Both the position numbers and the translations under genes were made by a program. From the IMG/VR virus record IMGVR_UViG_3300025073_000001: 47,864 bases of DNA; one strand, written 5' to 3'. This stretch comes from a virus. Lineage: Duplodnaviria > Heunggongvirae > Uroviricota > Caudoviricetes. Every line of letters begins with the position of its first letter. Position 1 is the first letter of the stretch. Positions 17,234 to 38,510 of the stretch are shown piece after piece. Under the pieces are notes generated by a model. The model was not told where the DNA came from. It did not search any database and saw only the letters and a list, made by a program, of their open reading frames with translations.

Positions 17234-17250
17234 CCTTTAGGTTTATTCCA

Positions 17251-17282
17251 CAATGATACAACTTTTTTCTGACAATTCCAAA
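17251..17282 (-). promoter_or_regulatory. host-type promoter TTTG-N20-TATCATTG for the polymerase unit
   Basis: -33 exact, -7 with one mismatch, 20-nt spacer. Confidence 0.5.
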
Positions 17283-17283
17283 T

Positions 17284-22928: not shown

Positions 22929-25900
22929 TTAGTTGTTATTAAATTTCTTCGTTATTGCACTGATTTTTTGACCATCTAAGACCAAGGTTGGATCTTTCTT
23001 AACCAAGATTTGCATCAATGCTACCATTTGCTTCAAGAGCATATTCGTTTCTTGATTGTCTGGAATAGTATCTTCTTGATAAGTATCCGTTTGCCTCTGA
23101 TTTACTTGATAAGGTGAACTTGCGGCAAATTGAGTTGAAGCAGTTCTTTCAAGTGTCATTCCAGATTCTTCACCGTTTGAACCTTTGGTATTCAAGAGTT
23201 TATCTTGTGCCATCGCTTCTTTTCTAGGTGTTTGAACCTTTGGAACTTGACTCTGAACAGGGGAAATTTTAACTTGAGTTGAATCCTGTTGAACTCCTTC
23301 GTAATTCTGAACGATTGGTTTGATTTTTTCCTTAGCAACTGAATCAATTCCAATTTTGGGGATTTCAGCCAGTTTGTCAAGTCCGGATAAATCCAAATTT
23401 GCCAGCGTTTCAGCCAAGACAAACAACGCATCGTTCAATCCTGTTAAAACTTTCTGGACAATATACAACGGTTCTGCGAGATTTCCAAGTTTTTCCAGAT
23501 CTTTAACAACATCTCCTCCAAATAACTTAGAAATACTACTTGAAACTGCTCCTGCTGACATTGCAGCCAAACCAAGTCCAATACTAGCAAGTGCTGGTCC
23601 GATAGTTAAAAGTTTCATCACGTCAATATTTCCCAAAGTTTCAAATACTTGGGAAATTCCAGAAGCGGTTGCAGTTATTACAGTCGCAATTCCATTAAAT
23701 GCTTTCTGAATTACGTTTCCAAATGCTTCCAATCCGGGAGTCGCAATTAATAAGGCTGCTGACAAAGGAAGTAATGATGCGCCTAATGCGGCAATTCCAA
23801 TCGCACCAAGTAACATTAATGGAAGAAAACTTCCAATTATTCCACCTGCAACTCCAAGACCGATTAACGCAACACCTGCTTTTGCCAAACTTGACCATTC
23901 GATCTTTGCAAACATATCCAACGCATAAGCAGCCGGAATCAATGCAGCACCGAGTGCAGCGATTGCAACTGCACCAATTAACATTTGAACGGATGCTGAA
24001 CCGAGTGATAAAGCGACGATTGCTAAACCGCCCAACGCAACTCCTGCTTTTGCTAAATCTTCCCACTTTACAGAAGTAAAGTTTTGAATTGCTTTTGACG
24101 CAATCCACAACGCTCCAGATAAAATTACCAGAGTTGCTGCTCCTTTTAAGGCCGAACCTTTGAACGAACTCAATCCATCTCCAATCCCTTTCAGTACATT
24201 TTTAATCGCTTCACCAATTCCCGAAGAAAGTTCCTTCATTGAAGTTGAAACAAACTTTACAATATCAGTTAAAACTGTTTTAATTCCGTCCCAAACTGTC
24301 TTTAAAATATTGGTGAATGAACTGAAACCTGAACCTGTTTTTTTAGCAACGTCTTGGATTGGTTCCTGTGGAGATGGAATATTTATTTTTCTACTTCTGG
24401 TCGTTGATTGGACGGTTTTTTCTGAGATTGACTTGGTTTTACTAATGACATCTTGAACTTGTTCAATTGGAGCCAAGACTTGCTTCCCTTGATCTGCCAA
24501 ATTATCAAATGTCCCTAACATTGAAGTGGTTGAACCTGGAAGTATTTTCTTCGCAAAATCAGCAATTCTTCCAAAAACTCCTTTACCTTTTGTTTCAATT
24601 CCATCAAATGCCTTTGTTCCCGAATTCTCAACTGAACCAAAGGCTTTACTCAATTTTTTTATCGGTTTTTCTAACTTTCCTTCAATTCCTTTTTCTATTT
24701 TTTTACTGAATACTTTTTCAATTCCTTCCGAAAGATAGCCAGTTAATAATGAGCCTGCTCCCATGAATGCCATGTCAAACATTCCACCCATGTTATCAGT
24801 CATTGAACTGGTTGCTTCTTCTCCATCCTTTTTCATTGTAAAAAATGAAGTTGCAGAACGCATCGCCATAATAGCAAAGGTTTTAGAGGCAATTTCACCA
24901 ATCGTTCCAAATCCTTTCCGAGCAGTATCTGGATTGATAAATGACATTTTTCCACCTTTTGCTGCAACTGCTTGAGTTCTAGTTACTGCAATTTGAGCAT
25001 CTTTTGCCATTTTTGCAGTTGAAGCAGTAACGGATGAAGTTGTCTTTGAAACACTTGCAGCAACTTCTGAATTCATTTTAGTCGCTGCTGAACTTACAAT
25101 TGAAGTATCTTTTTGCAAGGATTCTGCGACGTTTGCACTTACTTTACTTGCTTCGGCGGATACGTTTTGAGCACCTGATGTAATTGAATTAAAAGTTTCT
25201 TTAATGGAATCTGCAATTCCAGTCATCGTGCTGCCAATTGAATCAACCATTGAACTCATTGATGATTGAACTGATGAAGCCATTTCACGAACAGATGCTG
25301 CGGAACTTGCTGCGGTATCTTTGGCAGATTTATCAGCCGATCCGAATAACTTTCCAATTATCGGAATTTTAGATGCAAACTCTCCAATTCCATTATTTAA
25401 GAGACCGAACCTTTTAGCGATGAAAATTCCACCAATTATCTCACCAATTCCAATCAGAATTTTGACAACTTCACCAAGATACTTTCCAGTTCCAGAAACT
25501 GAATCGCCAAATTCATCCATTTCACCAGTCATTGATTTAAGTAAATCAGTTCCCCATGTCAATGGCCTGAGAATGACTTGAATTAAAGGTCCGATCATTT
25601 TAATGATTGAACCAATTCCCTTCAGTCCCATTATTAAAATATCCAATATTGGAGAAATAGCATCAATTCCAGTTGCTAATGATTCTACCAATGGAAGTAA
25701 TGAATTTACGAGAACGCCTTTAATTTTATCCCACGCAACTCCTAATCTATCCGTTGATTGAAGTGATTGAAGTTTATTTTTAATATCATCTTGACTCAAG
25801 GATGAAATATCGCCCATTCTATCTAAATTTGCCTGTAAATATTTCTGCTGATCATCTCCAAGACCAGCCATTTTACTTTGTAACATTACAGATTTTGCTA

Positions 25901-28109
25901 ATTCATCCACCGACATTCCGAGAGTCTTTGCAGTTTTCATTCGCAGTGTCGGATCCATTCTATTAAAATCTTCAATCGTTCCCATCTCCTTGACAATATC
26001 TCTCGTCATTCCTTCAATATCGCCCATTAAACCTTTTTCAAATGCTCCACTGAAATCAATTCCACCAGCGGACATTGCCTGAAGTTCATACATATCAGTC
26101 ATGAATCCTTCCATATCTGCAATCATGTCCTGGGCAATTCCACCTGCTTGCTTTAAACTCAATCCCATCCTGCGGACATTTATCGCTGTCTTTGCAGCCA
26201 GTTCAGGCATTCCTCCGAAATAAGTTGCAACTTCGGCAGCCGAATCAATTAAATCTTGTGCAACAATTTGAGGAGATAAACCTGCCATTTCTGACATCAT
26301 TCCTAAATTCTTCTGAAGATTCAATGACATTTTATCATCAGCACCTAATCTTTCAAATGTCTTGTGCAATTCAACGGCTTGTTCATTTCCATAACCGAAA
26401 TATTTTCCAACCTCAATTAAATTAATTGATAATTCTTTTGCTCCTTTATTATTTAAATCGAACATTTTTCCTGACGTTCCAATCATTGAAGTTTGAACGT
26501 CTTGAATGTCTTTCATCGTTGCAAATTGATTCTTCTGACTGGTCAATGTATCTAACTGAACTTGGTGAAGTTCCTTTGCTTGACCTAGAGATATTTTCAT
26601 CTCAGAAGCCATTTCTTTGTATTTATCAGTAATACTTGAAACAAATTTAAACAAGAGAACTGCCGAAGTCACGATTAACAGCATTGGATTCAAAGCCAGA
26701 CTCAGAGCAGGTTTAAAGGCTTTCATATATGAAGCCATAGATTTTGAATAATCTGAACTTTTTTGCAATTCAGCGGCAAAATCTTCAACTCCCTTTTTAT
26801 GTGAATCCATCAATGCCCCGGAAACCTTTGAAAGCCCGATGAATTCAGAAATTCCGGCCGGTAGAAGTTCATTGATATATTCAAACCCAGATCCAACTTT
26901 CAAAACAATTGATTCGGCAGTTTTCAATTTATCAGAAAATTCACTTAATCCCTTGACCAATGCGTACTGCTTGGCAATTTCCTTTTCTTGTAGTTGTAAA
27001 TTAACCTGATGTGCTAAATTATTTTCGGCAAGAATTTGACCTGCTGCACCTATTGGCTTGATTAATTCGGAATAACGCTTTTTTTGTTCTTCAGTTAAAT
27101 TATTTCCAAGTGAAATCAAATCAACCAATTCTTCAAACGAAGGAATTAGAATTTCTTTAAATCCTTTATTCTTTGCGGTTTTATCGAGTTCCTTCGCCAT
27201 CTTCTCAAATTCTTTCGTTCCCGGTTCAAGTATTCCAGTCAACGTTTTTATCTGCCCCGTATCAACATCAACTTCAATTCCAATCTTTTGACCTGCCATT
27301 TGTCGCAGCATATTGGTTTGAAGTTTTTCATTTTCTTTAAATGAACTTCTAAGTGCATCAATTCTGAGATTTTTTTCAATTTTAACGTTATCAATCGTTT
27401 TAGCAATTTCAGTGTCAAGTTGATCCGTTAATGGATTGAAATTTAAATCAACGTTGAACAATTCGCCCGAAGCAGATGAAACCAAACTTTTTAAATCAGA
27501 TTTCATATTAGAAATTAAAGTTTGAACTCCTTCAATGCTGGATTTTGAATCATCGAACATTGAATCAAGGTTGATTTCACTTCCTGATGCTTTTAAATTT
27601 TCATAAACCTTATCGAGTCCGACTCCAAACTGTCCAATCTGCTTTTTACTGGCTTGGACTGATTTTAAAATATCTTCGTAATTACCAAGTAAATTCTTGG
27701 TCAGGTCAATTTCACCGTCTAATAATTGATTTGTCGCTTTTTTTAACGCGTTGTAATTCTTTGAATCATCAATTATATCAGAATTGATCTTTTCAATTTC
27801 CCTGAACTTCTTAGTGATTTCAGTTAAATCGTCCTTTGAAATCTTCCTCTCTTTGGCCCATTTAGTGATGAATTCATCAGTTATTGCATAACCTTCGGAT
27901 TCAACCTTAGAAATCAATTCCTTAGCATCTCTGGCATTGGCAACGAATCCCGATTCTATTAAAGACATCACCTTTAATAGTTCACGATTGATCCTAACTT
28001 GTTCTTTTGAAGATGATTCGGACGTTTGGACAACTTTGAAGAGTTTGTCCATTATCTTCTTCATTTCCAAAGCATCCTTAGATGATCCTGAGTCTTTTGC
28101 CTTAGCCAT
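22929..28109 (-). CDS. tail tape measure protein
   Basis: 1726 aa, helical and Ala/Gly-rich, W..LAKAGVAL repeats, hydrophobic segments, terminal LVLDG.KI. Confidence 0.88.
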   Translation of the reverse strand: MAKAKDSGSSKDALEMKKIMDKLFKVVQTSESSSKEQVRINRELLKVMSLIESGFVANARDAKELISKVESEGYAITDEFITKWAKERKISKDDLTEITKKFREIEKINSDIIDDSKNYNALKKATNQLLDGEIDLTKNLLGNYEDILKSVQASKKQIGQFGVGLDKVYENLKASGSEINLDSMFDDSKSSIEGVQTLISNMKSDLKSLVSSASGELFNVDLNFNPLTDQLDTEIAKTIDNVKIEKNLRIDALRSSFKENEKLQTNMLRQMAGQKIGIEVDVDTGQIKTLTGILEPGTKEFEKMAKELDKTAKNKGFKEILIPSFEELVDLISLGNNLTEEQKKRYSELIKPIGAAGQILAENNLAHQVNLQLQEKEIAKQYALVKGLSEFSDKLKTAESIVLKVGSGFEYINELLPAGISEFIGLSKVSGALMDSHKKGVEDFAAELQKSSDYSKSMASYMKAFKPALSLALNPMLLIVTSAVLLFKFVSSITDKYKEMASEMKISLGQAKELHQVQLDTLTSQKNQFATMKDIQDVQTSMIGTSGKMFDLNNKGAKELSINLIEVGKYFGYGNEQAVELHKTFERLGADDKMSLNLQKNLGMMSEMAGLSPQIVAQDLIDSAAEVATYFGGMPELAAKTAINVRRMGLSLKQAGGIAQDMIADMEGFMTDMYELQAMSAGGIDFSGAFEKGLMGDIEGMTRDIVKEMGTIEDFNRMDPTLRMKTAKTLGMSVDELAKSVMLQSKMAGLGDDQQKYLQANLDRMGDISSLSQDDIKNKLQSLQSTDRLGVAWDKIKGVLVNSLLPLVESLATGIDAISPILDILIMGLKGIGSIIKMIGPLIQVILRPLTWGTDLLKSMTGEMDEFGDSVSGTGKYLGEVVKILIGIGEIIGGIFIAKRFGLLNNGIGEFASKIPIIGKLFGSADKSAKDTAASSAASVREMASSVQSSMSSMVDSIGSTMTGIADSIKETFNSITSGAQNVSAEASKVSANVAESLQKDTSIVSSAATKMNSEVAASVSKTTSSVTASTAKMAKDAQIAVTRTQAVAAKGGKMSFINPDTARKGFGTIGEIASKTFAIMAMRSATSFFTMKKDGEEATSSMTDNMGGMFDMAFMGAGSLLTGYLSEGIEKVFSKKIEKGIEGKLEKPIKKLSKAFGSVENSGTKAFDGIETKGKGVFGRIADFAKKILPGSTTSMLGTFDNLADQGKQVLAPIEQVQDVISKTKSISEKTVQSTTRSRKINIPSPQEPIQDVAKKTGSGFSSFTNILKTVWDGIKTVLTDIVKFVSTSMKELSSGIGEAIKNVLKGIGDGLSSFKGSALKGAATLVILSGALWIASKAIQNFTSVKWEDLAKAGVALGGLAIVALSLGSASVQMLIGAVAIAALGAALIPAAYALDMFAKIEWSSLAKAGVALIGLGVAGGIIGSFLPLMLLGAIGIAALGASLLPLSAALLIATPGLEAFGNVIQKAFNGIATVITATASGISQVFETLGNIDVMKLLTIGPALASIGLGLAAMSAGAVSSSISKLFGGDVVKDLEKLGNLAEPLYIVQKVLTGLNDALFVLAETLANLDLSGLDKLAEIPKIGIDSVAKEKIKPIVQNYEGVQQDSTQVKISPVQSQVPKVQTPRKEAMAQDKLLNTKGSNGEESGMTLERTASTQFAASSPYQVNQRQTDTYQEDTIPDNQETNMLLKQMVALMQILVKKDPTLVLDGQKISAITKKFNNN

Positions 28110-28345
28110 TACTTATCCTTCTTGTAATCTTTACAACGCTTATAATGAGGGAATCTGTCACACATTGATTTCAACTCACGTTCAAATTCATCTGCATGGA
28201 ACTTGATCGAATCCATCGTTGCTTTCAGAGAAGGATCCCTTTCAATGTCATTTTTTGTGAATTCCCTCTTCATCGCAGCAGATGCTAATAATTTAGCGAT
28301 TTGAACGAAGAGATTTTCCCGTAGATTTTCTAGTTTTTTTGCCAT
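28109..28345 (-). CDS. small protein upstream of tape measure (start revised to MAKKLENLRE)
   Basis: ATG lies just after the late motif; the longer start falls inside the promoter repeat. Confidence 0.55.
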   Translation of the reverse strand: MAKKLENLRENLFVQIAKLLASAAMKREFTKNDIERDPSLKATMDSIKFHADEFERELKSMCDRFPHYKRCKDYKKDK

Positions 28346-28348
28346 ATC

Positions 28349-28442
28349 TATAAATATCTGAACTTTTGTGAAAAATATTTTCAATTTTATTTGGAAGTTA
28401 ACTTGGAGGTACTTAACTTTGTACTATAATTAACGAAACAAC
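28349..28442. repeat. divergent dual-promoter cassette, copy 1
   Basis: Aligns by eye with 33956-34047 and 35409-35500; GATATTTATA on minus, TTTG-N20-TAACTTTG on plus. Confidence 0.8.
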
Positions 28443-28448
28443 AAGATT

Positions 28449-28664
28449 ATGACACAGAAAGATCTCAAAGACGGAAAAAAGTTCGTTTGGAAAAATCGTT
28501 CAAGTTGCCACATACTTGAAGTTGAATTCCAAGAACCAGCTCCACTGACGAATTGGACCAGTCCTTTTCAGGCTTGGTTCAATGGTCAACTTTTCGGGTT
28601 CAAAACTTTCAAAGAACTCGAAAGTAAAGTCAATAAATTGATCACAAAATTCAACCTTAAATAA
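28449..28664 (+). CDS. hypothetical island protein
   Basis: Directly downstream of host-type promoter. Confidence 0.65.
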   Translation: MTQKDLKDGKKFVWKNRSSCHILEVEFQEPAPLTNWTSPFQAWFNGQLFGFKTFKELESKVNKLITKFNLK

Positions 28665-28665
28665 A

Positions 28666-28893
28666 ATGACAAGTCAAGAAGCAAAAGGATCATTCATGTT
28701 ACTTTCAGATGTTATGAAATATTTTGAAGATAACAACCATGATTCCGATAATTTATGGGAATTAATTGAGGTTGATGGTCGTTCATATCTTCCAACTTCT
28801 GTTATTTCATCAAGAATGTCAGAACAAGAATGGAGAACGATGCAATCAAAAGTCACCACTTCAATCTTCGGATTAAATTCAATCACAATTTAA
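28666..28893 (+). CDS. hypothetical island protein
   Basis: Tandem ORF, A-rich start context. Confidence 0.6.
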   Translation: MTSQEAKGSFMLLSDVMKYFEDNNHDSDNLWELIEVDGRSYLPTSVISSRMSEQEWRTMQSKVTTSIFGLNSITI

Positions 28894-28903
28894 AAACAAC
28901 ATC

Positions 28904-29116
28904 ATGACAATATCAGTATCAATTCCACGTTCGATCTTGAATCCAACAACTCCACTTTTAACAGTTGGAATCATTGCACTAATGACGATTGATGGAAGTC
29001 ATGTTTCACAGGAAACTTCTTTCGATTTTGAATTTGAAGAATCAACTTTCGACTTAGTTCGAATCGTTCTTCAAAGGATGTTTGGAATCGACTTTGATCA
29101 AATTCTAATTTGGTAA
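28904..29116 (+). CDS. hypothetical island protein
   Basis: Tandem ORF followed by terminator. Confidence 0.6.
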   Translation: MTISVSIPRSILNPTTPLLTVGIIALMTIDGSHVSQETSFDFEFEESTFDLVRIVLQRMFGIDFDQILIW

Positions 29117-29138
29117 ATTGTTGAAAATAGGTGAATTT

Positions 29139-29172
29139 AGGCAATCTTCTAACGGAGGTTGCCTTTTTCTTT
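29139..29172 (+). terminator. intrinsic terminator
   Basis: AGGCAATCTTC-TAAC-GGAGGTTGCCT followed by TTTTCTTT. Confidence 0.8.
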
Positions 29173-29255
29173 GTCTACAAGGATTAACAAATCATTAACA
29201 GAAAATAACCAGAAAAAGTTTGTGGAATTCTGTCAAAGTCTTATATTTATAAGTA

Positions 29256-30158
29256 ATGACAGCGAATTTCTACGTCCCTTACGAACAAATAAAGTTCTTC
29301 ACTCAAAAAGATGAAGGGGTTTATCGTCATGGATTATCGTTTAGATTATATTTATACCTCTGTCATCATCACAGCGGAAGGATTAAATGGGACAACAGAA
29401 AGCATCTGGTTCAGCAATTTAATTCATCTCACACCGCAGTCAAGAAAGCACTTGAATACTTAGATTCAATCAACTTTGTCAGAATTGACAAAGGTTGGAT
29501 CACTGCAAACGGCCAAAGACAAGTCCATGAAATTTTACATCATGGAGTTGGGCGAATTTTCAACATTGAATTTTTATTTGATTTAGATATTTTAGCGAAT
29601 GCTCGGAAATTCGCGAACCATTTATTTTTATGTATTTTTCAATCGTCTGCCATGATTAGAGGCAGGAAGAAGAAAGTTTTGATTCCTCAAAAGAACCATA
29701 CTAACTGTATGCTGGAAAACGGACAGAATGAAAGTTCTGGGAAAGAAGAGTTTATTCAAAAGCAATCTTTGACCTATCTTGCCAAAATGACTGAAAGACA
29801 CCCACAAACTATTTTTAAGCGGAACCAAGGGATTAATGCTGAAAATCATTATCTCAACTCTTCCAATCCAAAGAGAGAAAAGACTTCTGGAAGAAGGACT
29901 GCTTTGACGCAAAATGGATTCAATACGAGGGAATATTCACCAATCGTAGGATTCCGTGAAGAAATGGACGCAAAGAGTCATTTGAATAATCTTCGTAAAA
30001 ATGATCCTAGTTTCTTTCCTTGTTATGTGATGGAAGCAGCACATGGAGGATTCGTCATTGTAAAGCACATTGCTGATGAATATTTGTTCTCAGTCAAGAC
30101 GAAAAAGTCATTTAAGAATTTTAATTCAGATTTTTCCGTTTTCCAGACACTGGAGTAG
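29256..30158 (+). CDS. basic protein with probable winged-HTH domain(s)
   Basis: RLYLYL...RKHLVQQFNSSHTAVKKALEYLDSINFV; second HTH-like SLTYLAKMTERHPQTI. Confidence 0.5.
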   Translation: MTANFYVPYEQIKFFTQKDEGVYRHGLSFRLYLYLCHHHSGRIKWDNRKHLVQQFNSSHTAVKKALEYLDSINFVRIDKGWITANGQRQVHEILHHGVGRIFNIEFLFDLDILANARKFANHLFLCIFQSSAMIRGRKKKVLIPQKNHTNCMLENGQNESSGKEEFIQKQSLTYLAKMTERHPQTIFKRNQGINAENHYLNSSNPKREKTSGRRTALTQNGFNTREYSPIVGFREEMDAKSHLNNLRKNDPSFFPCYVMEAAHGGFVIVKHIADEYLFSVKTKKSFKNFNSDFSVFQTLE

Positions 30159-30193
30159 AAGGTTATATTGTTTAGTAGTCAAATTTGTTTTTA

Positions 30194-30226
30194 CCTGAAT
30201 TAACTATGTTGTTAGTTCGGGCTTTT
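30194..30226 (+). terminator. probable intrinsic terminator
   Basis: CCTGAATTAAC...GTTAGTTCGGG hairpin followed by CTTTT. Confidence 0.55.
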
Positions 30227-30246
30227 GTATTTTAAACCAAATGTAA

Positions 30247-30819
30247 ATGAAATTAAATTCCTATTTAGAAACTATTGTTTACGAGAAAATCTACGAATTG
30301 TTTGACGATTCGCTAATTGAAAAGATTGAAGTTAATGAATATTATGATTGGATCATCAATCCTTACACCAAGAAGAATCTGCAACTTGATTTTCTAATTT
30401 ACTTCAAAGAAAAGATTGATTTTGAATTAGACGGAACTTTGATTAGAAAAGCCGCGATGTTAGCCATTGAAGTTCAAGGTCAGCAACATTTCAAAGAAGT
30501 GAAGGATTTTCACAAGAAGAAAAATGATTTTAAACATCAACAAATTAGAGATTCGATAAAATTAAGAATTTGTAGAGAACTTGGTATTCCATTGATTCGA
30601 CTTAGATTTAAGAAAATTACTTGGAAGATGGATTTGAAGAAACTCATTCTAATTCAAATGGATCAGTTTAAGAAAACTAATGAATTCGGAATTAAGAATC
30701 GAGAATATCTCGTTGAACATATTTCAAATTTATCTAAATTCAATTATGGAATGACTAAGGTTGATAAAGATGATTTGTTCGAGAGAAATGAGTGGACAAA
30801 TTTCTTAAAAAATATTTAA
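30247..30819 (+). CDS. PD-(D/E)xK (Vsr/DUF559-like) endonuclease
   Basis: LQLDF, LAIEVQGQQHF, QQIRD..K...C...GI.LI. Confidence 0.75.
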   Translation: MKLNSYLETIVYEKIYELFDDSLIEKIEVNEYYDWIINPYTKKNLQLDFLIYFKEKIDFELDGTLIRKAAMLAIEVQGQQHFKEVKDFHKKKNDFKHQQIRDSIKLRICRELGIPLIRLRFKKITWKMDLKKLILIQMDQFKKTNEFGIKNREYLVEHISNLSKFNYGMTKVDKDDLFERNEWTNFLKNI

Positions 30820-30826
30820 AAAATTT

Positions 30827-30858
30827 CTTGGTAATCATTTAAAAGTTACTTACCTTTG
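30827..30858 (+). promoter_or_regulatory. host-type promoter CTTG-N20-TACCTTTG
   Basis: Exact TAnnTTTG; shares ACTTACCTTT and GAAACAA with the cassette copies. Confidence 0.65.
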
Positions 30859-30878
30859 TTGAAACAATTATTAAAGAC

Positions 30879-31364
30879 ATGAGTTACAAAATTGAAATTT
30901 CTTACCGAACTGGTGGTTCTTTACACACTGAAGATACCACTGTTGTTCTTGAATTAGAGTGGAACGACTTGGATGTTGCAAAGGCGAACTTGAAGCGGAT
31001 TAAAGACCACTATCAAATGTATCAGGAACTCAAAAGTTATTCCGTTCGTAAGCAGAAAACTGCCCAAGAAATCTTCGCTGAAAACTCGGATAAAGATTGG
31101 TTCGTTGCAATGAAAAAAGATGCATTGTTTTCTGAAGGTAAATTTGTCAGAGTTATTGATCCAAAGGAGAAGAAGTGGTGGTCTGGTAAAGGATATTCAA
31201 TTGATCAAATTTATGATGAATTTTACGGAGAAAATTGTTTGAACATCTTCACTGATTCTGGAAACAAGATGCAAATGACTGCTTTTTGGATCGGACATTT
31301 TGAGCAACTTTACGGAGCAAAAATCATCGTTGCAGTTGATGAAGAATTAGAATTCGCTGTTTAA
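30879..31364 (+). CDS. hypothetical island protein
   Basis: 161-aa ORF behind promoter. Confidence 0.7.
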   Translation: MSYKIEISYRTGGSLHTEDTTVVLELEWNDLDVAKANLKRIKDHYQMYQELKSYSVRKQKTAQEIFAENSDKDWFVAMKKDALFSEGKFVRVIDPKEKKWWSGKGYSIDQIYDEFYGENCLNIFTDSGNKMQMTAFWIGHFEQLYGAKIIVAVDEELEFAV

Positions 31365-31367
31365 ATC

Positions 31368-31577
31368 ATGCCAATATTTAGAAAATGTCCACATTGCAAA
31401 TCCAATAAAGGATTTAAAATTGTCGTTTTACTTGGTGGAACACATGAATTTGAATCGGATTTTAAAGGAAATGTTATTAAAAATGTCAGAGATGGCTGTG
31501 ATAAAATAGAAATGTACGGGTCATGTCTTTCATGTAAAAAACCAATCTTGTCAGACAACTTAAAAATCAATTTTTGA
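31368..31577 (+). CDS. small zinc-ribbon protein
   Basis: CPHC ... CLSC. Confidence 0.6.
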   Translation: MPIFRKCPHCKSNKGFKIVVLLGGTHEFESDFKGNVIKNVRDGCDKIEMYGSCLSCKKPILSDNLKINF

Positions 31578-31584
31578 TTATAAA

Positions 31585-31806
31585 ATGATAAAATACTTCA
31601 AAATCTTCATATTAGTTTACGATTCAGAATATGTCCCTGGTGGTTATTCAACCAAACATCTTTGGCATCCAATTTATAAAGCAGTTTCTGACTATGACTT
31701 GGATCAGAACTTTGATTCAATTGAAGAAGCCGAATCTGCTCTGAAACAACATGGTAAAGAATGTAATGAATACGTCATTCAACCCATTTACAAAATTGAG
31801 TCATGA
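31585..31806 (+). CDS. hypothetical island protein
   Basis: Tandem ORF, FDSIEEAE motif. Confidence 0.6.
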   Translation: MIKYFKIFILVYDSEYVPGGYSTKHLWHPIYKAVSDYDLDQNFDSIEEAESALKQHGKECNEYVIQPIYKIES

Positions 31807-32015
31807 AATACCTAATTTCATTCATCTTCGGACTTTCAATTGGATTATTGCTACTTGCAATAATTGGTCAACTTTCTAAAATATTCTTAGCAAGTTACGA
31901 CCCATCATTTCCGGCAGAGCAAATCTGGGTTTACAATATGAATGTTTGGAATTGGACGTTTCTAACATTGATCATATTTTTAATTTCATTAATCACAAAT
32001 AAAAAAGAATCATGA
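31803..32015 (+). CDS. small membrane protein with two TM segments
   Basis: Two hydrophobic segments; ATGA overlap. Confidence 0.6.
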   Translation: MKYLISFIFGLSIGLLLLAIIGQLSKIFLASYDPSFPAEQIWVYNMNVWNWTFLTLIIFLISLITNKKES

Positions 32016-32233
32016 TTCTCTGCAATTACACTGAACGTGAAGAACGAATCTTCGATTGGGTTCAAACCTATCTTAATATCGCAGATGAAGGCGATTTAAA
32101 GATTATTTCAGTTGAACCTTTCATTTCCGGTCTTGAAATCGTCTATGAACGATGGTTCGATCCTGAATGGGAGAAATCAACGTTGACCTTGTTCAATTCA
32201 CAAATTTTACTCTTTGAATCTTTTAGAAAATGA
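32012..32233 (+). CDS. hypothetical island protein
   Basis: ATGA overlap with previous ORF. Confidence 0.6.
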   Translation: MILCNYTEREERIFDWVQTYLNIADEGDLKIISVEPFISGLEIVYERWFDPEWEKSTLTLFNSQILLFESFRK

Positions 32234-32302
32234 AATACAAAATGAAGATAATTCATACTGCATTTGCCATTTTACTTCCATTAAATTACTGTCCAAGAGC
32301 AT

Positions 32303-32339
32303 AAAAATAGGGCAGAAAAGATATTTCTATCTCCTGCCC
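32303..32339 (-). terminator. intrinsic terminator at the convergent island boundary
   Basis: Minus strand GGGCAG-G-AGATA-GAAA-TATCT-TTT-CTGCCC then TATTTTT. Confidence 0.6.
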
Positions 32340-32534
32340 CTTTGTTGATTTGCCTTTTCTATTGCCTCTGCTTCGGCTTCTTTTATTGCTACTAACTTTG
32401 AGTAATAATAAGCACGAACGTTGACTGGCATATTGTAAACCTGCTCAAACGGAAATCCTCCGTGAGTGTAATAACTCAGGTCAAAAACCTGATCCATCAC
32501 GGTTCTATCATACTCCGAGGTCAGGCCAAAAAAA
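32327..32534 (-). CDS. tail assembly chaperone extension (GT-like), probably reached by frameshift
   Basis: Overlaps the upstream gene end across a T7 run; HGGF.FEQVYNMP...R..YY..L resembles gpT-type domains. Confidence 0.65.
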
Positions 32535-33371
32535 GTTTGGTCCGATGGTAAGCGAAGCGAGAAAGGAGTCTCCCGTTTCCTCGTCAATTATTTGAACTTC
32601 CATGTTTGGACCTGGTTGCATCTTTGCAACGTGATCTCTGAACGCTCTTGAATCTCTGACCAAGAAGTCATTTTCAATAAAAAGCCTTATCAGGTTTGAA
32701 TCAGAATTTCCGTTCACAGATTGAATCATTTGTTCCAATCGTGTCGTGACTTGTTTATCTTCTCCACCTGCTTTTTTCCGCTTTAACTTTTCTTCAATTG
32801 CTTTGTTGTCTCCAACTGTCAACAATTTAAAAGTTAAGTCAAACTTTCCTTTCCGATTCTCAAAGGAATAATTGAACAAGTTTTCATTCTTGAACAATGT
32901 TTCGTCAACTTCCTTGCATTCAATCTCTTTCAAGTTAATGTCAACCTTCTGTTTCTTGCCTGATGGAGTCGTTACGTCAAACGTATAAATTGGCCCGTAG
33001 CCGTAGATTCTTGACGCGAGTATAAGTTGATCCTTATCTCCGATTAAAAGGTTGTCATAGTTAAATTTGGGCGAAATAATGATACTCTGGAGGAACTTAT
33101 CAATCACGATTCCTGCTTTGATGTAGGATTCAGTTGTCAGAATGTTTTCTTCCTTAGTCGTAACGTCTTTTACCTCAATTACTCCTTTTGACAACGGATC
33201 GTCCAACGTATAAAGCAGTCCTTTGGAAGGAAGTTGAACGATGTTGGTTGGGAAAGTTTGGGCCTTGAGTTCTTGAACCGATTCCTGTTCAAATGTTGGA
33301 TTAGGGTTTGGACCATTTTGATCCTGTGGTGGAATTGACGTTGAAGTCACTTTTACTTTTGAGTCTTGCAT
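32508..33371 (-). CDS. tail assembly chaperone / baseplate hub assembly protein (T4 gp26-like)
   Basis: VQLPSKGLLY, T.KEE.ILT, LLIGD...L..ASRI.GYG, ends NFFWPD; follows tube genes. Confidence 0.75.
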   Translation of the reverse strand: MQDSKVKVTSTSIPPQDQNGPNPNPTFEQESVQELKAQTFPTNIVQLPSKGLLYTLDDPLSKGVIEVKDVTTKEENILTTESYIKAGIVIDKFLQSIIISPKFNYDNLLIGDKDQLILASRIYGYGPIYTFDVTTPSGKKQKVDINLKEIECKEVDETLFKNENLFNYSFENRKGKFDLTFKLLTVGDNKAIEEKLKRKKAGGEDKQVTTRLEQMIQSVNGNSDSNLIRLFIENDFLVRDSRAFRDHVAKMQPGPNMEVQIIDEETGDSFLASLTIGPNFFWPDLGV

Positions 33372-33404
33372 ACAGTTTTAATTTTATTCCTTTTATTTGT
33401 TTAC

Positions 33405-33420
33405 TATAAGTATTGAACTT
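33405..33420 (-). promoter_or_regulatory. putative late promoter AAGTTCAATACTTATA
   Basis: Recurring motif in intergenic position. Confidence 0.55.
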
Positions 33421-33429
33421 AAATGAATT

Positions 33430-33939
33430 TTATAGATTCGGAACTCCAATTCCTGTGAAGTTTCCCGATAAGAACATTGCATAATCATAACTGATTGTCA
33501 TTTGTGGTTGGACGACTTCTTCAGCAGCGTAGTCAAATTCTCCAAAGTTAATTCCTCCCATGAATGCACCGATTAATTTCCAAGTTCCAACTGGAATATC
33601 AGATGGTGAAAGTAATTGTAAGATAATATCTTTCTTGTATTTGTCCGGATATTCATCTTTTCCGTCTTGAACGTTTTGATGCAACGTATTCAAATACGCC
33701 CAAAGTTGATCAATTGTCTTCTTCTCATACGCATAACAAGTCAAAGTTATATCGTTCCACTTTGTCTTGCCTTTAACTTTCATTTGAGTGTTTCCGTATT
33801 CAACCGTTATTGGTGAATTGTCAACCGTTGGCATTTGCATTGCCTTGGCGTAAATTCCAATATCTTGAAGTTCAGAAAAAACTACTTTAAATCTGAACGA
33901 AAGTTGTGGGTTATTTCCTTCTGGTGATAATCTTGCCAA
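33430..33939 (-). CDS. tail tube protein paralog 3 (T4 gp19-like)
   Basis: P.L.FRF, KVKGKTKW.DITL, YKKDI.L.LL.P, W.L.GAF, T.SYDYA. Confidence 0.85.
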   Translation of the reverse strand: MARLSPEGNNPQLSFRFKVVFSELQDIGIYAKAMQMPTVDNSPITVEYGNTQMKVKGKTKWNDITLTCYAYEKKTIDQLWAYLNTLHQNVQDGKDEYPDKYKKDIILQLLSPSDIPVGTWKLIGAFMGGINFGEFDYAAEEVVQPQMTISYDYAMFLSGNFTGIGVPNL

Positions 33940-33955
33940 TTCGTTTCCTCTTTTC

Positions 33956-34047
33956 TATAAATATCAAACTTTCTGAAAAATATCTTTGAAATTATTTGGA
34001 AGTTAATTCGGAAGGACTTACCTTTATGGTATTAATTAACGAAACAA
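33956..34047. repeat. divergent dual-promoter cassette, copy 2
   Basis: ATAAATATCAAACTTTCTGAAAAATA identical to copy 3; TTTG-N20-TACCTTTA. Confidence 0.82.
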
Positions 34048-34055
34048 ATAAAAAA

Positions 34056-34382
34056 ATGATTAATTTAATTCAAGACCCTGCAAGTTTCCTTAAACCGGTT
34101 GAAGGAAATAAAACATTTTTCAGTCCTGGAAGTCATGGATGGGACGGAACTTATGTGACAATTGAAAAATACTATAACCCCGGAAACTCCGGACTAGTGT
34201 CTGGAAAGTTTTATTTAAAAAATAACAACCGTCAGGCTCACGAGGTTGATAAACAATGGGGCGGTGGACTTGCAATTGCAACTGATTTTGTTAACATCCT
34301 CGTTGAGGATGATTTCATCACAGTCAACAGAGGATATGACAATTTAAAAATCTCTGTAAATGGAGAATTATTTGAATTCTAA
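34056..34382 (+). CDS. hypothetical island protein (start revised to MINLIQD)
   Basis: ATG after an A-rich leader; the track start lies inside the promoter. Confidence 0.65.
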   Translation: MINLIQDPASFLKPVEGNKTFFSPGSHGWDGTYVTIEKYYNPGNSGLVSGKFYLKNNNRQAHEVDKQWGGGLAIATDFVNILVEDDFITVNRGYDNLKISVNGELFEF

Positions 34383-34468
34383 AGATAATAAAAGACTTAG
34401 GAATTGAAGTTTTTAATTCAATTCTAAAGGAAAAGGATATTGAAATTTAACCAATAAACAATTCAATC

Positions 34469-34684
34469 ATGAATACTTTTATTAAAGGTCAATGTCACAC
34501 GAATCTGGACGGTTACGATTGTTCAGAAGTTATAATTTTCGCCCGTGTTCCAAATATTGGTGAACGAGTTTATTGTAGACGAAAGGGACAATTAACATCG
34601 TTGAGAGTCGTTCAAATTACCCATGATATTCGCGGAACATTTGGAAATGAATATCCTTATATTCACGTTGAACTTCACAATTAA
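34469..34684 (+). CDS. hypothetical island protein
   Basis: 71-aa ORF, RVP.IGE pattern. Confidence 0.65.
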   Translation: MNTFIKGQCHTNLDGYDCSEVIIFARVPNIGERVYCRRKGQLTSLRVVQITHDIRGTFGNEYPYIHVELHN

Positions 34685-34696
34685 ACAGATTTTATC

Positions 34697-34858
34697 ATGC
34701 TACTTCAATTTGAATGTTATACTCATCCAGAACAAATAGAAGTGATCTTCTTTGACACTGAAAAATGGAAATGGATTGAATCAGTTCATTTTCCCAGAAT
34801 TGCAATTATTCCAAATTTATCAGATTTGGAAAAATTTTTCCAAATCAACCAGAAGTAA
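34697..34858 (+). CDS. 53-aa protein MLLQFECYTHPEQ..., not in ORF track
   Basis: Translated by hand; same ATCATG start context as neighbours. Confidence 0.45.
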   Translation: MLLQFECYTHPEQIEVIFFDTEKWKWIESVHFPRIAIIPNLSDLEKFFQINQK

Positions 34859-34921
34859 TTACTTCAATAATTCTGCTGATGAACGATTTTGGATGGTCTG
34901 AACCAGAGTAGATTTGTTAAA

Positions 34922-35404
34922 TTATCCAATCAACGGTTTAAAAATCGCATAATCATATCTGATTGTGCAATTGACTTCAATCACTTCATCTGAACTTCTG
35001 TCCATTTCTCCAAAGTTCACAGATTCGTAAAACGCTCCGTGAAGTATCCAAGTTCCAAGAGGGATTTCTTCCGGAGTCAAGGTTAGAATCCTTAAATCGT
35101 GCTTGTAAACTTCGTTCCTGAAATCAATCGCATCACGGACAATTTGATGTTGTTGAAGATAAGTCCAGAATTCAGTTTGAGTTATCCCTTCAAAGTGATA
35201 ACATCTGATGTTGATTGAATTCCACTTTGTCTTTCCCTTCACGAAAAAGGATCCATTTCCATTATGTAGTTCAATTGGACTGTTTTCAATAGTTGGAAGG
35301 GTTGCGGCTCTTGCGTGAATTGTCGCAAAAGGCAACCTAGTGGTGAAAATCGTATATCTGAATTGAAGCGATGGATGAAATGCTTCTGGAACAAGTAGTC
35401 TCAT
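34922..35404 (-). CDS. tail tube protein paralog 2 (start MRLLVP; alternative TTG at 35410)
   Basis: HP.LQFRY, VKGKTKW, YKHDL, W.L.GAF, I.YDYA. Confidence 0.85.
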   Translation of the reverse strand: MRLLVPEAFHPSLQFRYTIFTTRLPFATIHARAATLPTIENSPIELHNGNGSFFVKGKTKWNSINIRCYHFEGITQTEFWTYLQQHQIVRDAIDFRNEVYKHDLRILTLTPEEIPLGTWILHGAFYESVNFGEMDRSSDEVIEVNCTIRYDYAIFKPLIG

Positions 35405-35408
35405 TTCC

Positions 35409-35500
35409 AATAAATATCAAACTTTCTGAAAAATAATTCTAAAAAGATTTGGAAGTTAATTCAGAAGAACTTACCTTTACAGTATTAATTAACTAAACAA
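35409..35500. repeat. divergent dual-promoter cassette, copy 3
   Basis: Near-identical to copy 2. Confidence 0.82.
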
Positions 35501-35511
35501 CAATAAAAATC

Positions 35512-35733
35512 ATGGCAACTGCAATTAAATTCATCGACGAAAAAGGCATTCCGAGATTCTTTCACATTGCTCCTAACACTTGGGACGAAATGACAGTTGA
35601 AATGCCTTCATGGTTAGAATCAATTTTATGTGAAGATACATTTTCAATTACAAATTTGATTTCAACCATTCAAAAAGAATTTCCAGATTGGACTTTTGAA
35701 TCAAAGCAAATTGATATTGAAAATCTATTCTAA
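35512..35733 (+). CDS. hypothetical island protein
   Basis: Single ORF behind cassette copy 3. Confidence 0.65.
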   Translation: MATAIKFIDEKGIPRFFHIAPNTWDEMTVEMPSWLESILCEDTFSITNLISTIQKEFPDWTFESKQIDIENLF

Positions 35734-35765: not shown

Positions 35766-35810
35766 AAAAATAGGGACAAGGAAATTAATCCAAGTCCCTA
35801 TTCCTTTCTT
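35766..35810. terminator. probable bidirectional terminator
   Basis: AATAGGGAC...GTCCCTATT inverted repeat with T-rich tails on both strands, between convergent genes. Confidence 0.65.
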
Positions 35811-35845: not shown

Positions 35846-36091
35846 TTATTTCTGTTTGGCTAAATCTGCACTGGTTCTTGAACCTTGAAGTGCAAGCAAA
35901 ACTGTTCCGAGCCATTGGATTGCAGTTGCAGCCCATTCTGGAAGCGTGATAATTCCGGCCAATGAGCCTTGGTCTGCAAAATAAACGATTGTCATTAATA
36001 GAATAACGATCAAAGTTGCAACTTTGGCATTTTTAGCCTTGAATTTGTCCCAAAGGTTGACTAATAAATCAACTAAAAATTGTGGAACCAT
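35846..36091 (-). CDS. holin-like small membrane protein
   Basis: 81 aa, two hydrophobic helices, basic C-terminus. Confidence 0.5.
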   Translation of the reverse strand: MVPQFLVDLLVNLWDKFKAKNAKVATLIVILLMTIVYFADQGSLAGIITLPEWAATAIQWLGTVLLALQGSRTSADLAKQK

Positions 36092-36137
36092 TTTTTATTT
36101 CCTCTTTTATTTTTTATTTAATTGCGCGAACTTGCGC

Positions 36138-36611
36138 TTATGAATATGTAGCATAATCATAACAAACGGTGATTTCTGCCGTTGAAACGTCATCAGTTCC
36201 TCTATCATGTGAACCCCATGCAACTGTTTCAAAGAATGCTCCAACCAGTTTCCAAGTACCAACAGGTGCTTCATCTGGTCCAAGTAACATCAATTGAAGG
36301 TCGTGCTTGTAAGAAGGTGCTCTGGTGTCAGTAGCGGATTCAACTGCTTGGTGCTCTTGTAAATAACCCCAAAGTTCAGTTGCTGTAATTCCTTCAAAGT
36401 TGTATGCAGACAGTGTAATTGAATCCCATCTCAACTTACCTTTCACTTTCATGTAAGAGTTGACATATTCAACCGTAACTGGTGCTCCTTGTGCAGTTGG
36501 CTGAGTTGCAGCCTTGCAGTAAATTTGTGCTCCAGGAAGTTTTGACGTAGTCACCCAATATCTAAATTGTAGAATTGGGTGATGTGCATCTGGAACTATT
36601 AATCTTGGCAT
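36138..36611 (-). CDS. tail tube protein paralog 1 (probable major tube)
   Basis: Directly after sheath; HP.LQFRY, KVKGK..W..ITL, YKHDL, WKLVGAF, YDYA. Confidence 0.88.
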   Translation of the reverse strand: MPRLIVPDAHHPILQFRYWVTTSKLPGAQIYCKAATQPTAQGAPVTVEYVNSYMKVKGKLRWDSITLSAYNFEGITATELWGYLQEHQAVESATDTRAPSYKHDLQLMLLGPDEAPVGTWKLVGAFFETVAWGSHDRGTDDVSTAEITVCYDYATYS

Positions 36612-36633
36612 ATTCTATTTTCCTTTTCTTTAT

Positions 36634-36650
36634 TGTAATTATCCAAACTT
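36634..36650 (-). promoter_or_regulatory. putative late promoter AAGTTTGGATAATTACA
   Basis: Variant of recurring motif. Confidence 0.5.
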
Positions 36651-36665
36651 GAAAACTTTCCTTTC

Positions 36666-38510
36666 TTACTCATTAGTATCAGTTGGGAAAAGTGCTCCAG
36701 TTGGCAGAATTACAAAGTCAACAATGATGAATTCCGCAGTCTTTGCTGGTTTCAAGTAAATTTGACATCTCATTTCATTGCGGTCAATTACGTCTGGCGT
36801 ATTGTTTGATTCGTCAATGATGATCCGATAATCGTACAAACCTTGTTGGTTTCTAACTCTTCTGAAATACGGATCGGTTAATTCAATGAATCTCGCTCTA
36901 GTTTCAACCGTGTTATTCTCAAACACCAAGTATTTAACAGTGTAAGCAACAAATCTCTTCGCATCAATTAACAATCTACGAACGTTAATACGGTCAAGTG
37001 CTGATTGCTTTTTCTGCAATGTCTTCTGACCCCAAACCGTGATTCCTTGTCTTGGGAAAGTTGCAATTGGATTTACAGATTTAATGTATAAGTTATCTCT
37101 GTCACCTTGTGTCATTAAACGTTCAGTCTGAATAACTGTATCAAGAACACCTCTGTTCAAACCTGCTGGAGCGTACCAAGGATGTGCAATCAAGTCGTTA
37201 AAAGAATAAACTGCTGAAACAACTGCCGAAGGTGGAACCCAAATGTTTCTTCCCAAATCTGGATCTGGAATCATGCACCAAGGATAGTACATTGCGGCAT
37301 AATTGGTATTTCTTGCTTCTGCGGCTAATTGTGCTTGCCCAACTGTTGAACCTTTGTAAGTTGGATCAATGACATACATAACATCACCTCTGTCCTCGCA
37401 CATATTAATCGCTCTCGTAATCATTGCACCGTGACCTGTCAAGTTGTCCATCAAACCAGGAGTAAATAACAAGTTAATGTCAAACTGATCTTTGTTTGAT
37501 AAAATATTAATAGCATCGTCATATGCCGTATATCCCCAAGATGCAGATGCTGGATTGAAACCTTGTGTATTGGTTGCAAAAATCAACTCATTCATCGCTC
37601 TTGGATGAATAACGTTACCTTCTGAACCTCCACCAAATGTTCCAGATACTGCCGCTGGCAATGAACCTGAAAGTGAAGCATCACGAATTGAACCGTTTGA
37701 ATTGATGTAGTTCAAAGTGTTTCTGACTGCTTCAATTCTGATAAATCTTGAACGGTTTGGATATGAACCTGAACGTTCTAAGTAAGGAGCACCATTTGAA
37801 TCATATCTCAAAGTGTTAACTTGGTCGCCAACTACTTTTGCAATGTAGTTTTGAGTATTTGGATCCAAAGAAACTTGCGAATATTGCTCTAAAAGAACTT
37901 TTCTGTTCTCAATGTCATCACCTCTTCTGATGTAAAGATCAAAAACACCTCTGGATGGATCAACGTTTGCAATTTCCCATCTTGCATTGAATTGTGATCC
38001 AGTTAACAACAAATTGTTTGTAGTTGAATCACTTTCATATCCTGAACCAGATACTGCTGCGCCAGTCGCACCTGAGTTCATTATATCGCCGTCTGATAAT
38101 GAAACGATTTTAAACGCCATGTCTGCTGCACCATAAGTTGCTGAAGCAGTGTTGGCTAAGTTGAAAACGTGCGAACCTGAATCAATGACGTAAGAATACG
38201 CTGGCTGGTAGTTTGCATTCAGAATTTTTACAACTGTTACAACCTGACCATACTTGATATATTCTTGTACGCAATGCGTAGTCAAATATTTATACATTCT
38301 CTCTGACGCACCTGAGCCAGAAATGAACGTATCTCCGAACCAACGAATGTATTCTGAATAATTGCTGATTGGTGTTGGGACGAACGCTGGTCCACGAACG
38401 GTCGGTCCAATGACTGCCGCGCCAACGGCAGGGATTTCTTGTGGACGAAAAGATAAGTCTTGCTCACGAGTAAATACGCCCGGACTTAAAAATATATTAC
38501 TGCTTGCCAA
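36666..38510 (-). CDS. tail sheath protein (T4 gp18-like)
   Basis: SPGVFTREQD, GPT.RGP, YYPW, PPS, PWYAPAG.NRG, WGQKT, INVRRL, FE.N, P.K.AEFI. Confidence 0.96.
   Translation of the reverse strand: MASSNIFLSPGVFTREQDLSFRPQEIPAVGAAVIGPTVRGPAFVPTPISNYSEYIRWFGDTFISGSGASERMYKYLTTHCVQEYIKYGQVVTVVKILNANYQPAYSYVIDSGSHVFNLANTASATYGAADMAFKIVSLSDGDIMNSGATGAAVSGSGYESDSTTNNLLLTGSQFNARWEIANVDPSRGVFDLYIRRGDDIENRKVLLEQYSQVSLDPNTQNYIAKVVGDQVNTLRYDSNGAPYLERSGSYPNRSRFIRIEAVRNTLNYINSNGSIRDASLSGSLPAAVSGTFGGGSEGNVIHPRAMNELIFATNTQGFNPASASWGYTAYDDAINILSNKDQFDINLLFTPGLMDNLTGHGAMITRAINMCEDRGDVMYVIDPTYKGSTVGQAQLAAEARNTNYAAMYYPWCMIPDPDLGRNIWVPPSAVVSAVYSFNDLIAHPWYAPAGLNRGVLDTVIQTERLMTQGDRDNLYIKSVNPIATFPRQGITVWGQKTLQKKQSALDRINVRRLLIDAKRFVAYTVKYLVFENNTVETRARFIELTDPYFRRVRNQQGLYDYRIIIDESNNTPDVIDRNEMRCQIYLKPAKTAEFIIVDFVILPTGALFPTDTNE

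Follow-up and report, generated by a model that had tools for sequence, protein, structure and literature searches.

A repeated candidate two-way promoter cassette at the head of variable antisense gene islands in the tail module of what appears to be a large Bacteroidota phage

How do small genes that face against the direction of transcription come to lie between the structural genes of a phage tail, and by what signals might they be expressed there? The question is raised by a 47,864-nucleotide stretch of viral DNA (IMG/VR record IMGVR_UViG_3300025073_000001; here the window), a portion of a 59,361-bp contig with a CheckV completeness of approximately 31%. PHROG profiles identified in its minus strand a contractile-tail module with a sheath, three tail-tube paralogs (tubeA, tubeB, and tubeC), a baseplate-hub-like gene (hub), and a tape measure protein (TMP), and between tubeB or tubeC or the small tail genes s81, s56, and s78 lie three plus-strand islands of open reading frames (ORFs), each headed by a copy of one intergenic repeat (Table 1). 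The initial annotation had taken this repeat for a self-compensating gene capture unit in which a host-type promoter drives the captured genes and a late promoter, back to back with it, restarts transcription of the interrupted tail operon. We consider it likely that the repeat is a two-way cassette heading variable antisense islands in the tail module, comparable in its working to the promoter-early stem-loops (PeSLs) of T4-type phages, and that its late half restarts transcription in a more restricted set of places than was supposed.

A repeat finder returned one family of three 110-nt copies, 63 to 85% identical without gaps, and a profile hidden Markov model built from the three retrieved them from the whole 59,361-bp contig with E values from 3e-31 to 7e-28, together with a partial copy inside island 1 (E = 0.022, profile positions 21 to 93); the profile found no further copy in the contig, with nothing else below an E value of 0.4. 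The copies listed in the initial annotation, including the partial one, are thus real. Each full copy takes up all of the sequence that separates the start codon of a tail gene on the minus strand from the first cargo start codon on the plus strand and, read along the plus strand, consists of the reverse complement of the late motif GATATTTAT (that is, ATAAATATC, at 28350, 33957, and 35410), approximately 31 nt of A/T-rich sequence, TTTG-N20-TAnnTTT(G/A), the leader GTATTAATTAACGAAACAA, and an ATG situated 28 to 33 nt past the -7 box. Both motifs are present, back to back as first described, in all three copies; a cassette heads every antisense island, and the three full copies and the partial copy all lie upstream of ORFans. 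The likeness among copies extends past the promoter boxes, in that the spacer between the -33 and -7 elements and the leader are also common to them, and copies 2 and 3 have an identical 26-nt stretch in their late halves. The cassette is, as far as its motifs indicate, a divergent regulatory region of approximately 105 bp with a putative phage late promoter and a putative host-type promoter back to back. A repeat search revealed neither inverted terminal repeats nor flanking target duplications around the copies or the islands, and an origin as a transposon or a miniature inverted-repeat transposable element was rejected on those grounds.

The plus-strand promoter is of the kind established for Flavobacterium johnsoniae, in which the consensus is TTTG/TAnnTTTG and transcription starts 4 to 5 nt after the -7 element (PMC6847099). 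The pattern TTTG-N18-21-TAHHTTT(G/A) was observed 14 times, compared with 3.8 +/- 1.8 times in shuffled sequences, and its occurrences start all three islands and one internal unit of island 1 (29219). A scan for sigma-70 promoters was uninformative (29 matches versus 32 expected), as would be expected with a Bacteroidota host, and the nearest cultured relative, Flavobacterium phage vB_FspM_immuto (sheath 45% identical), is consistent with the occurrence of Bacteroidota-type promoters in the contig. The source appears to be an uncultured large Bacteroidota phage, a lytic large myovirus; a megablast search of the region against cultured phages gave no match.

The minus-strand half of the cassette carries a motif that recurs before other tail genes. 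The degenerate form RATAHTTAY has 23 matches on the minus strand of the contig, 12 of which fall within the 7% of the sequence that is intergenic, and 7 matches on the plus strand, 0 of them intergenic. The intergenic minus-strand motifs lie 5 to 35 nt upstream of minus-strand genes, mostly after AAGT(T), and are found before tube, hub, and head-tail adaptor genes, so that AAGTT-N1-3-GATATTTAT can reasonably be predicted to be a phage late promoter. GATATTTA fits the core (xAnnTTTx) of the host -7 element TAnnTTTG, with the first and last bases changed and no -33 partner. Typical late genes of the contig have a 20- to 35-nt leader with AAGGA; in tubeB and s78 only 4 to 5 nt separate the motif from the ATG. 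The motif abuts the ATG of these two genes, at the same 4 to 5 nt, in all island-bearing relatives, whereas in island-free relatives both genes have a 16- to 20-nt leader containing AGGA. Given so short a gap and the start site geometry of F. johnsoniae, we infer, from position only, that the late mRNAs of tubeB and s78 would be leaderless or nearly so.

The contig has a G+C content of approximately 33% and is coded nearly entirely on the minus strand; sizeable plus-strand coding is confined to the three islands, within which GC skew and AT skew both change sign. Replication genes, such as that for a DnaB-like helicase (9256-10641), share the strand of the late genes, so that the antisense orientation is peculiar to the tail islands; those within positions 1 to 22000 of the window stand behind host-type promoters (2327-2358 and 15238-15269, with a variant near 17234-17283). 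A search of IMG/VR with the sheath protein yielded 21 related contigs (designated by L numbers, such as L004 and L005), with sheath identities of 48 to 93%, and the order sheath-tubeA-s81-tubeB-tubeC-hub-s56-s78-TMP is conserved among them. Among these 21 relatives, antisense islands occur at four junctions (s81/tubeB, tubeB/tubeC, tubeC/hub, and s56/s78), comprise from one to more than 10 ORFs, and carry cargo of which almost nothing is shared from one genome to the next; homologs among the relatives exist for only two cargo ORFs of the window. One cargo family, F3, is located at tubeB/tubeC in the window and L015 and at s81/tubeB in L008, L010, L017, and L021. There are no antisense islands in L024 (128 kb), in L012, or in the cultured phage immuto, and the junctions are contiguous in L024, L012, L010 (tubeB/tubeC), and immuto. 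Of five relatives with 10 kb upstream of the sheath gene, four are co-directional throughout and L005 has one 46-aa antisense ORF there; because this upstream sequence is largely co-directional, the hot region extends from the tube genes to the tape measure gene.

No match to the exact cassette pattern was found in IMG/VR; the cassette copies of relatives differ in the spacer and were recovered by profile only. The core TTGGWAGTTAWYT occurs in five larger related contigs (16 to 73% complete) in the tail islands only, and there is none in the island-free L024. The initial annotation had supposed that cargo may be swapped at these sites, and the comparison of orthologous positions supports this, in that cargo is highly variable and island-free relatives exist. 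Those observations from sequence that the annotation had named as counting against it do not hold: cargo is not invariant, no host-type promoter turned up at junctions that lack islands, and the similarity of the copies reaches beyond the promoter boxes.

The boundaries of the replaced sequence are sharp. The backbone DNA of the window is 78 to 81% identical to that of L004 and L015, and in the two comparisons homology stops at 35758/35753, just beyond the s81 hairpin, and restarts at 35500/35529, at the first cargo ATG and the cassette edge; it stops again at the stop codon of tubeB (34922/34919), restarts at 34039/34008 inside copy 2, and stops once more at 32301, just beyond the s56 hairpin. 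Breakpoints at cassette edges, on the one hand, and at hairpins or a stop codon, on the other, indicate that the cassette and the hairpins are conserved backbone and that the cargo in between has been replaced. Between L005 and L006, the backbones of which are 91 to 96% identical, a 153-aa cargo gene forms an indel (L005:15930-16419 versus L006:5463-5470) with its junction exactly at an ATGAAA microhomology at the start codon, and the s81/tubeB cassette of L006 is chimeric, carrying the leader of the tubeB/tubeC cassette (97% identity over 93 nt). A gene resembling those for HNH or homing endonucleases (38536-39540, minus strand) lies between the sheath gene and its upstream neighbor, with homologs comparably placed in L004 and L008; endonuclease-stimulated recombination, through this gene and the endonuclease-like ORF of island 1 (30247-30819), could contribute to cargo turnover.

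Copies within one genome resemble each other more than their surroundings would suggest. The cassettes at the tubeB and tubeC sites of the window (the B and C sites) are 82% identical, and the flanking tube proteins are approximately 45% identical; the C-site copy of the window is 82 to 83% identical to the B-site copies of L004 and L015, versus 73 to 74% for its positional orthologs. The B and C copies of L005 have an identical 65-nt block, and in L019 a single promoter core occurs four times. Gene conversion or repeated duplication would account for such a pattern by keeping the copies of a genome alike, and an exchange of sequence between copies is suggested by the chimeric cassettes and by the presence of cargo family F3 at two different junctions. 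With the breakpoints, these observations support the recombination envisaged in the initial annotation, but not the excision within a single genome that it also contemplated, which would delete tail genes.

Selection for function might produce likeness of this kind through independently optimized early and late promoters, with neither common ancestry nor any role in recombination. The TTTGGAA and TAnnTTTG boxes also occur in minus-strand host-type promoters elsewhere in the contig (2327-2358, 15238-15269, and 52996-53028), divergent relatives have TTGGWAGTTA and the leader motif ATTAAC-AAAC in common, and the operator-like GTTAAT-N5-GTTAAT upstream of the promoter in relatives suggests a regulator, all of which would accord with such convergence. 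The same minus-strand promoters, however, have unrelated spacers and are not recovered by the profile; spacer and leader positions that vary between genomes are identical within one genome, with sharp edges, as in the 65-nt block of L005; and chimeric cassettes and breakpoints at cassette edges are not expected from selection alone. We judge this explanation very unlikely. Still more improbable, to the point of being negligible, is the notion that copies 2 and 3 arose along with the tube paralogs, each gene having been duplicated in tandem together with its upstream region. The starts of the two copies are 1453 bp apart, close to the 1468-bp spacing of the tube paralog segments, but the paralogs are ancient, being approximately 40 to 50% identical to each other compared with 82 to 85% for the cassettes, copy 1 precedes an unrelated gene, and island-free relatives possess tube paralogs without cassettes. 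The age of the duplication is also evident from the presence of orthologs of A, B, and C throughout the relatives, down to 72% sheath identity, and an origin of the cassettes along with the tube genes was rejected. Tube paralog B is missing from L012 and L011.

Did the late promoter arrive with the cassette? At s56/s78, the island-free L012 and L024 have a late motif preceded by a G+C-rich hairpin and its T-run, and a hairpin and a late motif also stand before tubeB in L024 and before tubeC in L012; two of the three islands of the window thus occupy pre-existing transcription unit boundaries. The tail genes are therefore not the single operon in need of rescue that the initial annotation had assumed, since a terminator and a late promoter are already in place at junctions of relatives that have no islands. 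The hub gene has a late motif with or without a preceding island. The tubeB/tubeC junction is different: in L010, L021, and L024 it is 17 to 23 nt long and has no late motif, whereas in the window, L004, L015, and L019 an island is followed by a late motif (in L019, the one-mismatch variant GATAGTTAT) and a native AGGA-type leader. At this junction only, the arrangement makes it most likely that the late promoter arrived with the cassette. In L005, L006, L018, and L020, and also in L008, the repeat found within the genome comprises the host-type promoter and an upstream GTTAAT-N5-GTTAAT only, and no late motif stands between the island and tubeC, so that a restart promoter is not obligatory. 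The direct repeat GTTAAT-N5-GTTAAT, which reads ATTAAC-N5-ATTAAC on the opposite strand, immediately precedes the island host-type promoters in L005, L006, L008, and L010, looks like a candidate operator for a regulator, and occurs twice in the source contig, at 29185-29205 (plus strand) and in the gap at 55207-55349 on the scale of the window.

These observations bear on the strongest form of the initial proposal, namely, that the cassette is a self-contained mobile unit which invariably carries a host-type promoter together with a late restart promoter and can land anywhere in a late operon without polar effects. The contrast at tubeB/tubeC speaks for it, as do the 26-nt identity between the late halves of the tubeC and tubeB copies, the abutment of the motif on the ATG of tubeB and s78 where there are islands, and the presence of both halves in all three copies of the window. 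It is at odds with the hairpins and late promoters that pre-exist at s56/s78 (L012 and L024) and before tubeB (L024), with the independence of the hub late promoter from islands, with the repeats of the L005 group and L008 that lack the late half, and with the absence of terminal repeats and target duplications in the repeat search. We think such a unit unlikely. A late-restarting, self-compensating function may be retained for tubeB/tubeC, but not for the other two sites in the window, where the late promoter pre-existed, or for the L005 group.

The terminator hairpins that had been assigned to the far boundaries of two islands hold up by folding, but they are features of the conserved tail gene backbone and not a property of the islands. 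Their clear U-tracts lie on the tail gene strand; the s81 hairpin is kept in L004, L015, L008, and L010 as part of the backbone, and the s56 hairpin is kept in relatives, with functionally equivalent hairpins in the island-free L012 and L024. Both are predicted to be late-strand terminators, and the one after s81 could be bidirectional. Folding of the distal boundary of island 2 (34859-34921) gave no hairpin (z = -0.5 and +0.5).

Apart from the two island 1 ORFs identified in Table 1, the cargo ORFs received no family or function from Pfam, PHROGs, or PADLOC. Directly before the ATG of a 300-aa ORF in island 1 (29256-30158, plus strand) is AAGTCTTATATTTATAAGTA (site 29219-29255), which can be read either as a late-type motif separated from the ATG by 5 nt or as TTTG-N19-TATATTTA; this ORF may be expressed late despite lying in an "early" island. 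In L019, an additional paralog of s78 (L019:13598-13831) is located right before tubeB, again behind a cassette copy.

Table 1. Positions of the cassette copies, predicted signals, islands, and tail genes (numbering of the window)
Feature	Position	Strand	Remarks
Cassette copy 1	28346-28455		Between s78 (minus) and island 1 (plus); repeat finder, profile
Cassette copy 2	33951-34060		Between tubeC (minus) and island 2 (plus); repeat finder, profile
Cassette copy 3	35404-35513		Between tubeB (minus) and island 3 (plus); repeat finder, profile
Partial copy, host promoter half only	30797-30869	plus	Inside island 1; 21 nt upstream of ATG 30879
Predicted late motif GATATTTAT	28350-28358	minus	4 nt before ATG of s78
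Predicted late motif	33957-33965	minus	17 nt before TTG of tubeC
Predicted late motif	35410-35418	minus	5 nt before ATG of tubeB
Predicted Bacteroidota-type promoter TTTG-N20-TAACTTTG	28390-28421	plus	First cargo ATG 28449
Predicted Bacteroidota-type promoter	33995-34026	plus	First cargo ATG 34056
Predicted Bacteroidota-type promoter	35448-35479	plus	First cargo ATG 35512
Predicted variant promoter TTGG-N-TACCTTTG	30828-30858	plus	Partial copy; outside the counted host-type pattern
Island 1	28449-32233	plus	Ten ORFs; composite
Island 1, predicted internal terminators	29139-29164, 30194-30221	plus	29139-29164 is a good terminator and precedes the 300-aa ORF
Island 1, predicted internal promoters	29219-29249, 30828-30858	plus	
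Island 1, DUF2726/homing-endonuclease-like ORF	30247-30819	plus	
Island 1, phrog_10176 ORF	30879-31364	plus	PHROG of unknown function
Island 2	34056-34858	plus	Three ORFs (108, 71, and 53 aa)
Island 2, 71-aa ORF	34469-34684	plus	Cargo family F3
Island 3	35512-35733	plus	One 73-aa ORFan
Hairpin after s81	35766-35810	minus	U-tract on minus strand; z = -2.8; U-rich on plus strand too
Hairpin at 3' end of s56	32303-32339	minus	U-tract on minus strand; 32310-32339, z = -2.4
Tail sheath	36666-38510	minus	PHROG profile
tubeA	36138-36611	minus	PHROG profile
tubeB	34922-35404	minus	PHROG profile
tubeC	33430-33939	minus	PHROG profile; TTG start
hub, baseplate-hub-like gene	32508-33371	minus	PHROG profile
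TMP	22929-28109	minus	PHROG profile
s81	35846-36091	minus	81-aa tail gene
s56	32327-32497	minus	56-aa tail gene
s78	28109-28345	minus	78-aa tail gene upstream of TMP
Tail gene blocks flanking the islands	22929-28345, 32327-33939, 34922-35404, 35846-38510	minus	

We suggest that the islands are hyperplastic regions built up at four junctions of a once uninterrupted tail-tube/baseplate module, most of them in gaps where a terminator and a late promoter would already have been in place. A strong plus-strand promoter of the host sigma-A type (TTTGGAAGTTAA...TAnnTTTR) with a conserved A-rich leader of approximately 22 to 28 nt would drive the small accessory ORFs, which the unmodified host RNA polymerase probably transcribes early, and on the minus strand the late promoter AAGTT-N1-3-GATATTTAT would start transcription of the next tail gene. 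As the islands face backwards, their early promoter could not turn on the tail genes prematurely, and the conserved hairpin at the far end would keep late transcription from continuing antisense through the island and may also end the transcripts of the island. Cargo would turn over by recombination anchored in the cassette and the tail gene backbone, with a contribution from microhomology at gene starts, and gene conversion or duplication would keep the copies within a genome alike; in the lineage of the window, the copying would span both promoters and would have supplied the tubeB/tubeC late promoter that relatives lack. The sequence shows the repeat and how it is built, the variability of the cargo, the breakpoints, and the ancestral structure of the junctions; promoter activity, timing, insulation by orientation, and gene conversion are components of this scheme that we infer.

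A number of points weigh against the scheme. Both promoters, the timing of expression, and the terminators are predictions, and the copy count covers a contig that represents approximately 31% of a genome. A scan of metagenomes with tubeB found no relative nearer than L015 and no near-identical sister genome, and the informative sites behind the mosaic signal are few. Coevolution with a phage regulator, in place of gene conversion, could explain why the spacer is conserved in a genome-specific manner. The behavior of tubeC in the L005 group and L008, described above, belongs here as well, as does the finding that the three cassette copies, folded on both strands, have no significant internal stem-loop (z from -1.5 to +1.3), in which they are unlike PeSLs. 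Finally, since essential tail genes lie between the directly repeated copies, recombination within a genome would be lethal (tubeB, for instance, would be lost if copies 2 and 3 recombined), which limits any role in PeSL-style excision and makes it probable that exchange takes place between coinfecting genomes instead.

PeSLs nevertheless constitute the closest known system. These "mobile regulatory cassettes" of T4-type phages are units of approximately 100 bp, present in approximately 50 copies per genome. Each has a strong early promoter of the sigma-70 kind with AT-rich DNA upstream of it, followed by a stem-loop terminator, a ribosome-binding site, and the start codon; PeSLs are found mostly upstream of ORFans in hyperplastic regions, the indels that distinguish sister phages coincide with them, and PeSL-PeSL recombination gives rise to mini-circles (Arbiol et al. 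2010, PMC2839356; Comeau et al. 2014, PMC4122927). The cassette described here is likewise an intergenic unit of approximately 100 bp, with a predicted early promoter of the host sigma type, AT-rich upstream DNA, a leader, and a start codon; it sits before ORFans, would provide their transcription signals, and coincides with breakpoints both between the window and L004 or L015 and between L005 and L006. It differs in using a Bacteroidota -33/-7 promoter in place of a sigma-70 -35/-10 promoter, in being fused back to back with the late promoter of the neighboring tail gene, in numbering three copies and one partial copy in 59 kb (a contig approximately 31% complete), and in having all copies inside the tail-tube/baseplate module and facing against it. 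Because it lacks an internal stem-loop, the hairpin being at the far end of the island as part of the tail gene backbone, the cassette is not a PeSL in the strict sense, although it is PeSL-like in its working.

The islands also invite comparison with the morons of lambdoid and other temperate phages described by Hendrix, Juhala, and colleagues, extra genes with their own promoter and terminator between genes that are otherwise adjacent, which are usually single units, usually on the same strand, and expressed from the prophage. Like morons, the islands lie between genes that are adjacent in relatives (L024, L012, L010 at tubeB/tubeC, and immuto) and have a predicted promoter of their own; with regard to the terminator, the distal hairpins are backbone that is also present without islands, and island 1 has predicted internal plus-strand terminators. 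Unlike morons, the islands are multigene, antisense, and headed by one repeated promoter unit, and the phage appears to be lytic. In T4, the late promoter TATAAATA is a single -10-like element with no -35 element and precedes many individual structural genes, and small nonessential genes read by the host polymerase lie on the opposite strand between structural genes. Single-element late promoters, as predicted here, and small opposite-strand genes between structural genes are features shared with T4; the late motif GATATTTAT, however, resembles the host -7 element TAnnTTTG with altered ends, and the remainder of the contig, replication genes included, is co-directional with the late genes, so that the antisense islands are the exception.

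One further possibility, which we put forward tentatively and consider doubtful, is that the two-promoter unit is a duplicative module that would open insertion sites in tightly coupled late operons, as at tubeB/tubeC, by bringing in a late promoter so near the start codon (4 to 5 nt at tubeB and s78) that the tail gene would be read from a leaderless late mRNA; if that is true, accessory "early" genes would have a general route into essential structural operons in the phages of Bacteroidota. Late mRNAs predicted to be leaderless, together with a late motif that is -7-like and has no -33 element, provide testable ideas on late transcription in these phages. More broadly, the idea developed for PeSLs, that a cassette serves at once for the expression of accessory genes and as a joint at which they are exchanged, would be extended to the phages of Bacteroidota, in which promoters and translation signals differ from those of enterobacteria, and hot spots for accessory genes are seen within the tail-tube/baseplate module, a region that is usually regarded as stable. 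TTGGWAGTTA...TAnnTTTG facing against tail genes may serve as a simple marker for fast-evolving ORFans in this phage group, and the ORFans so marked are candidates for host takeover or antidefense functions.

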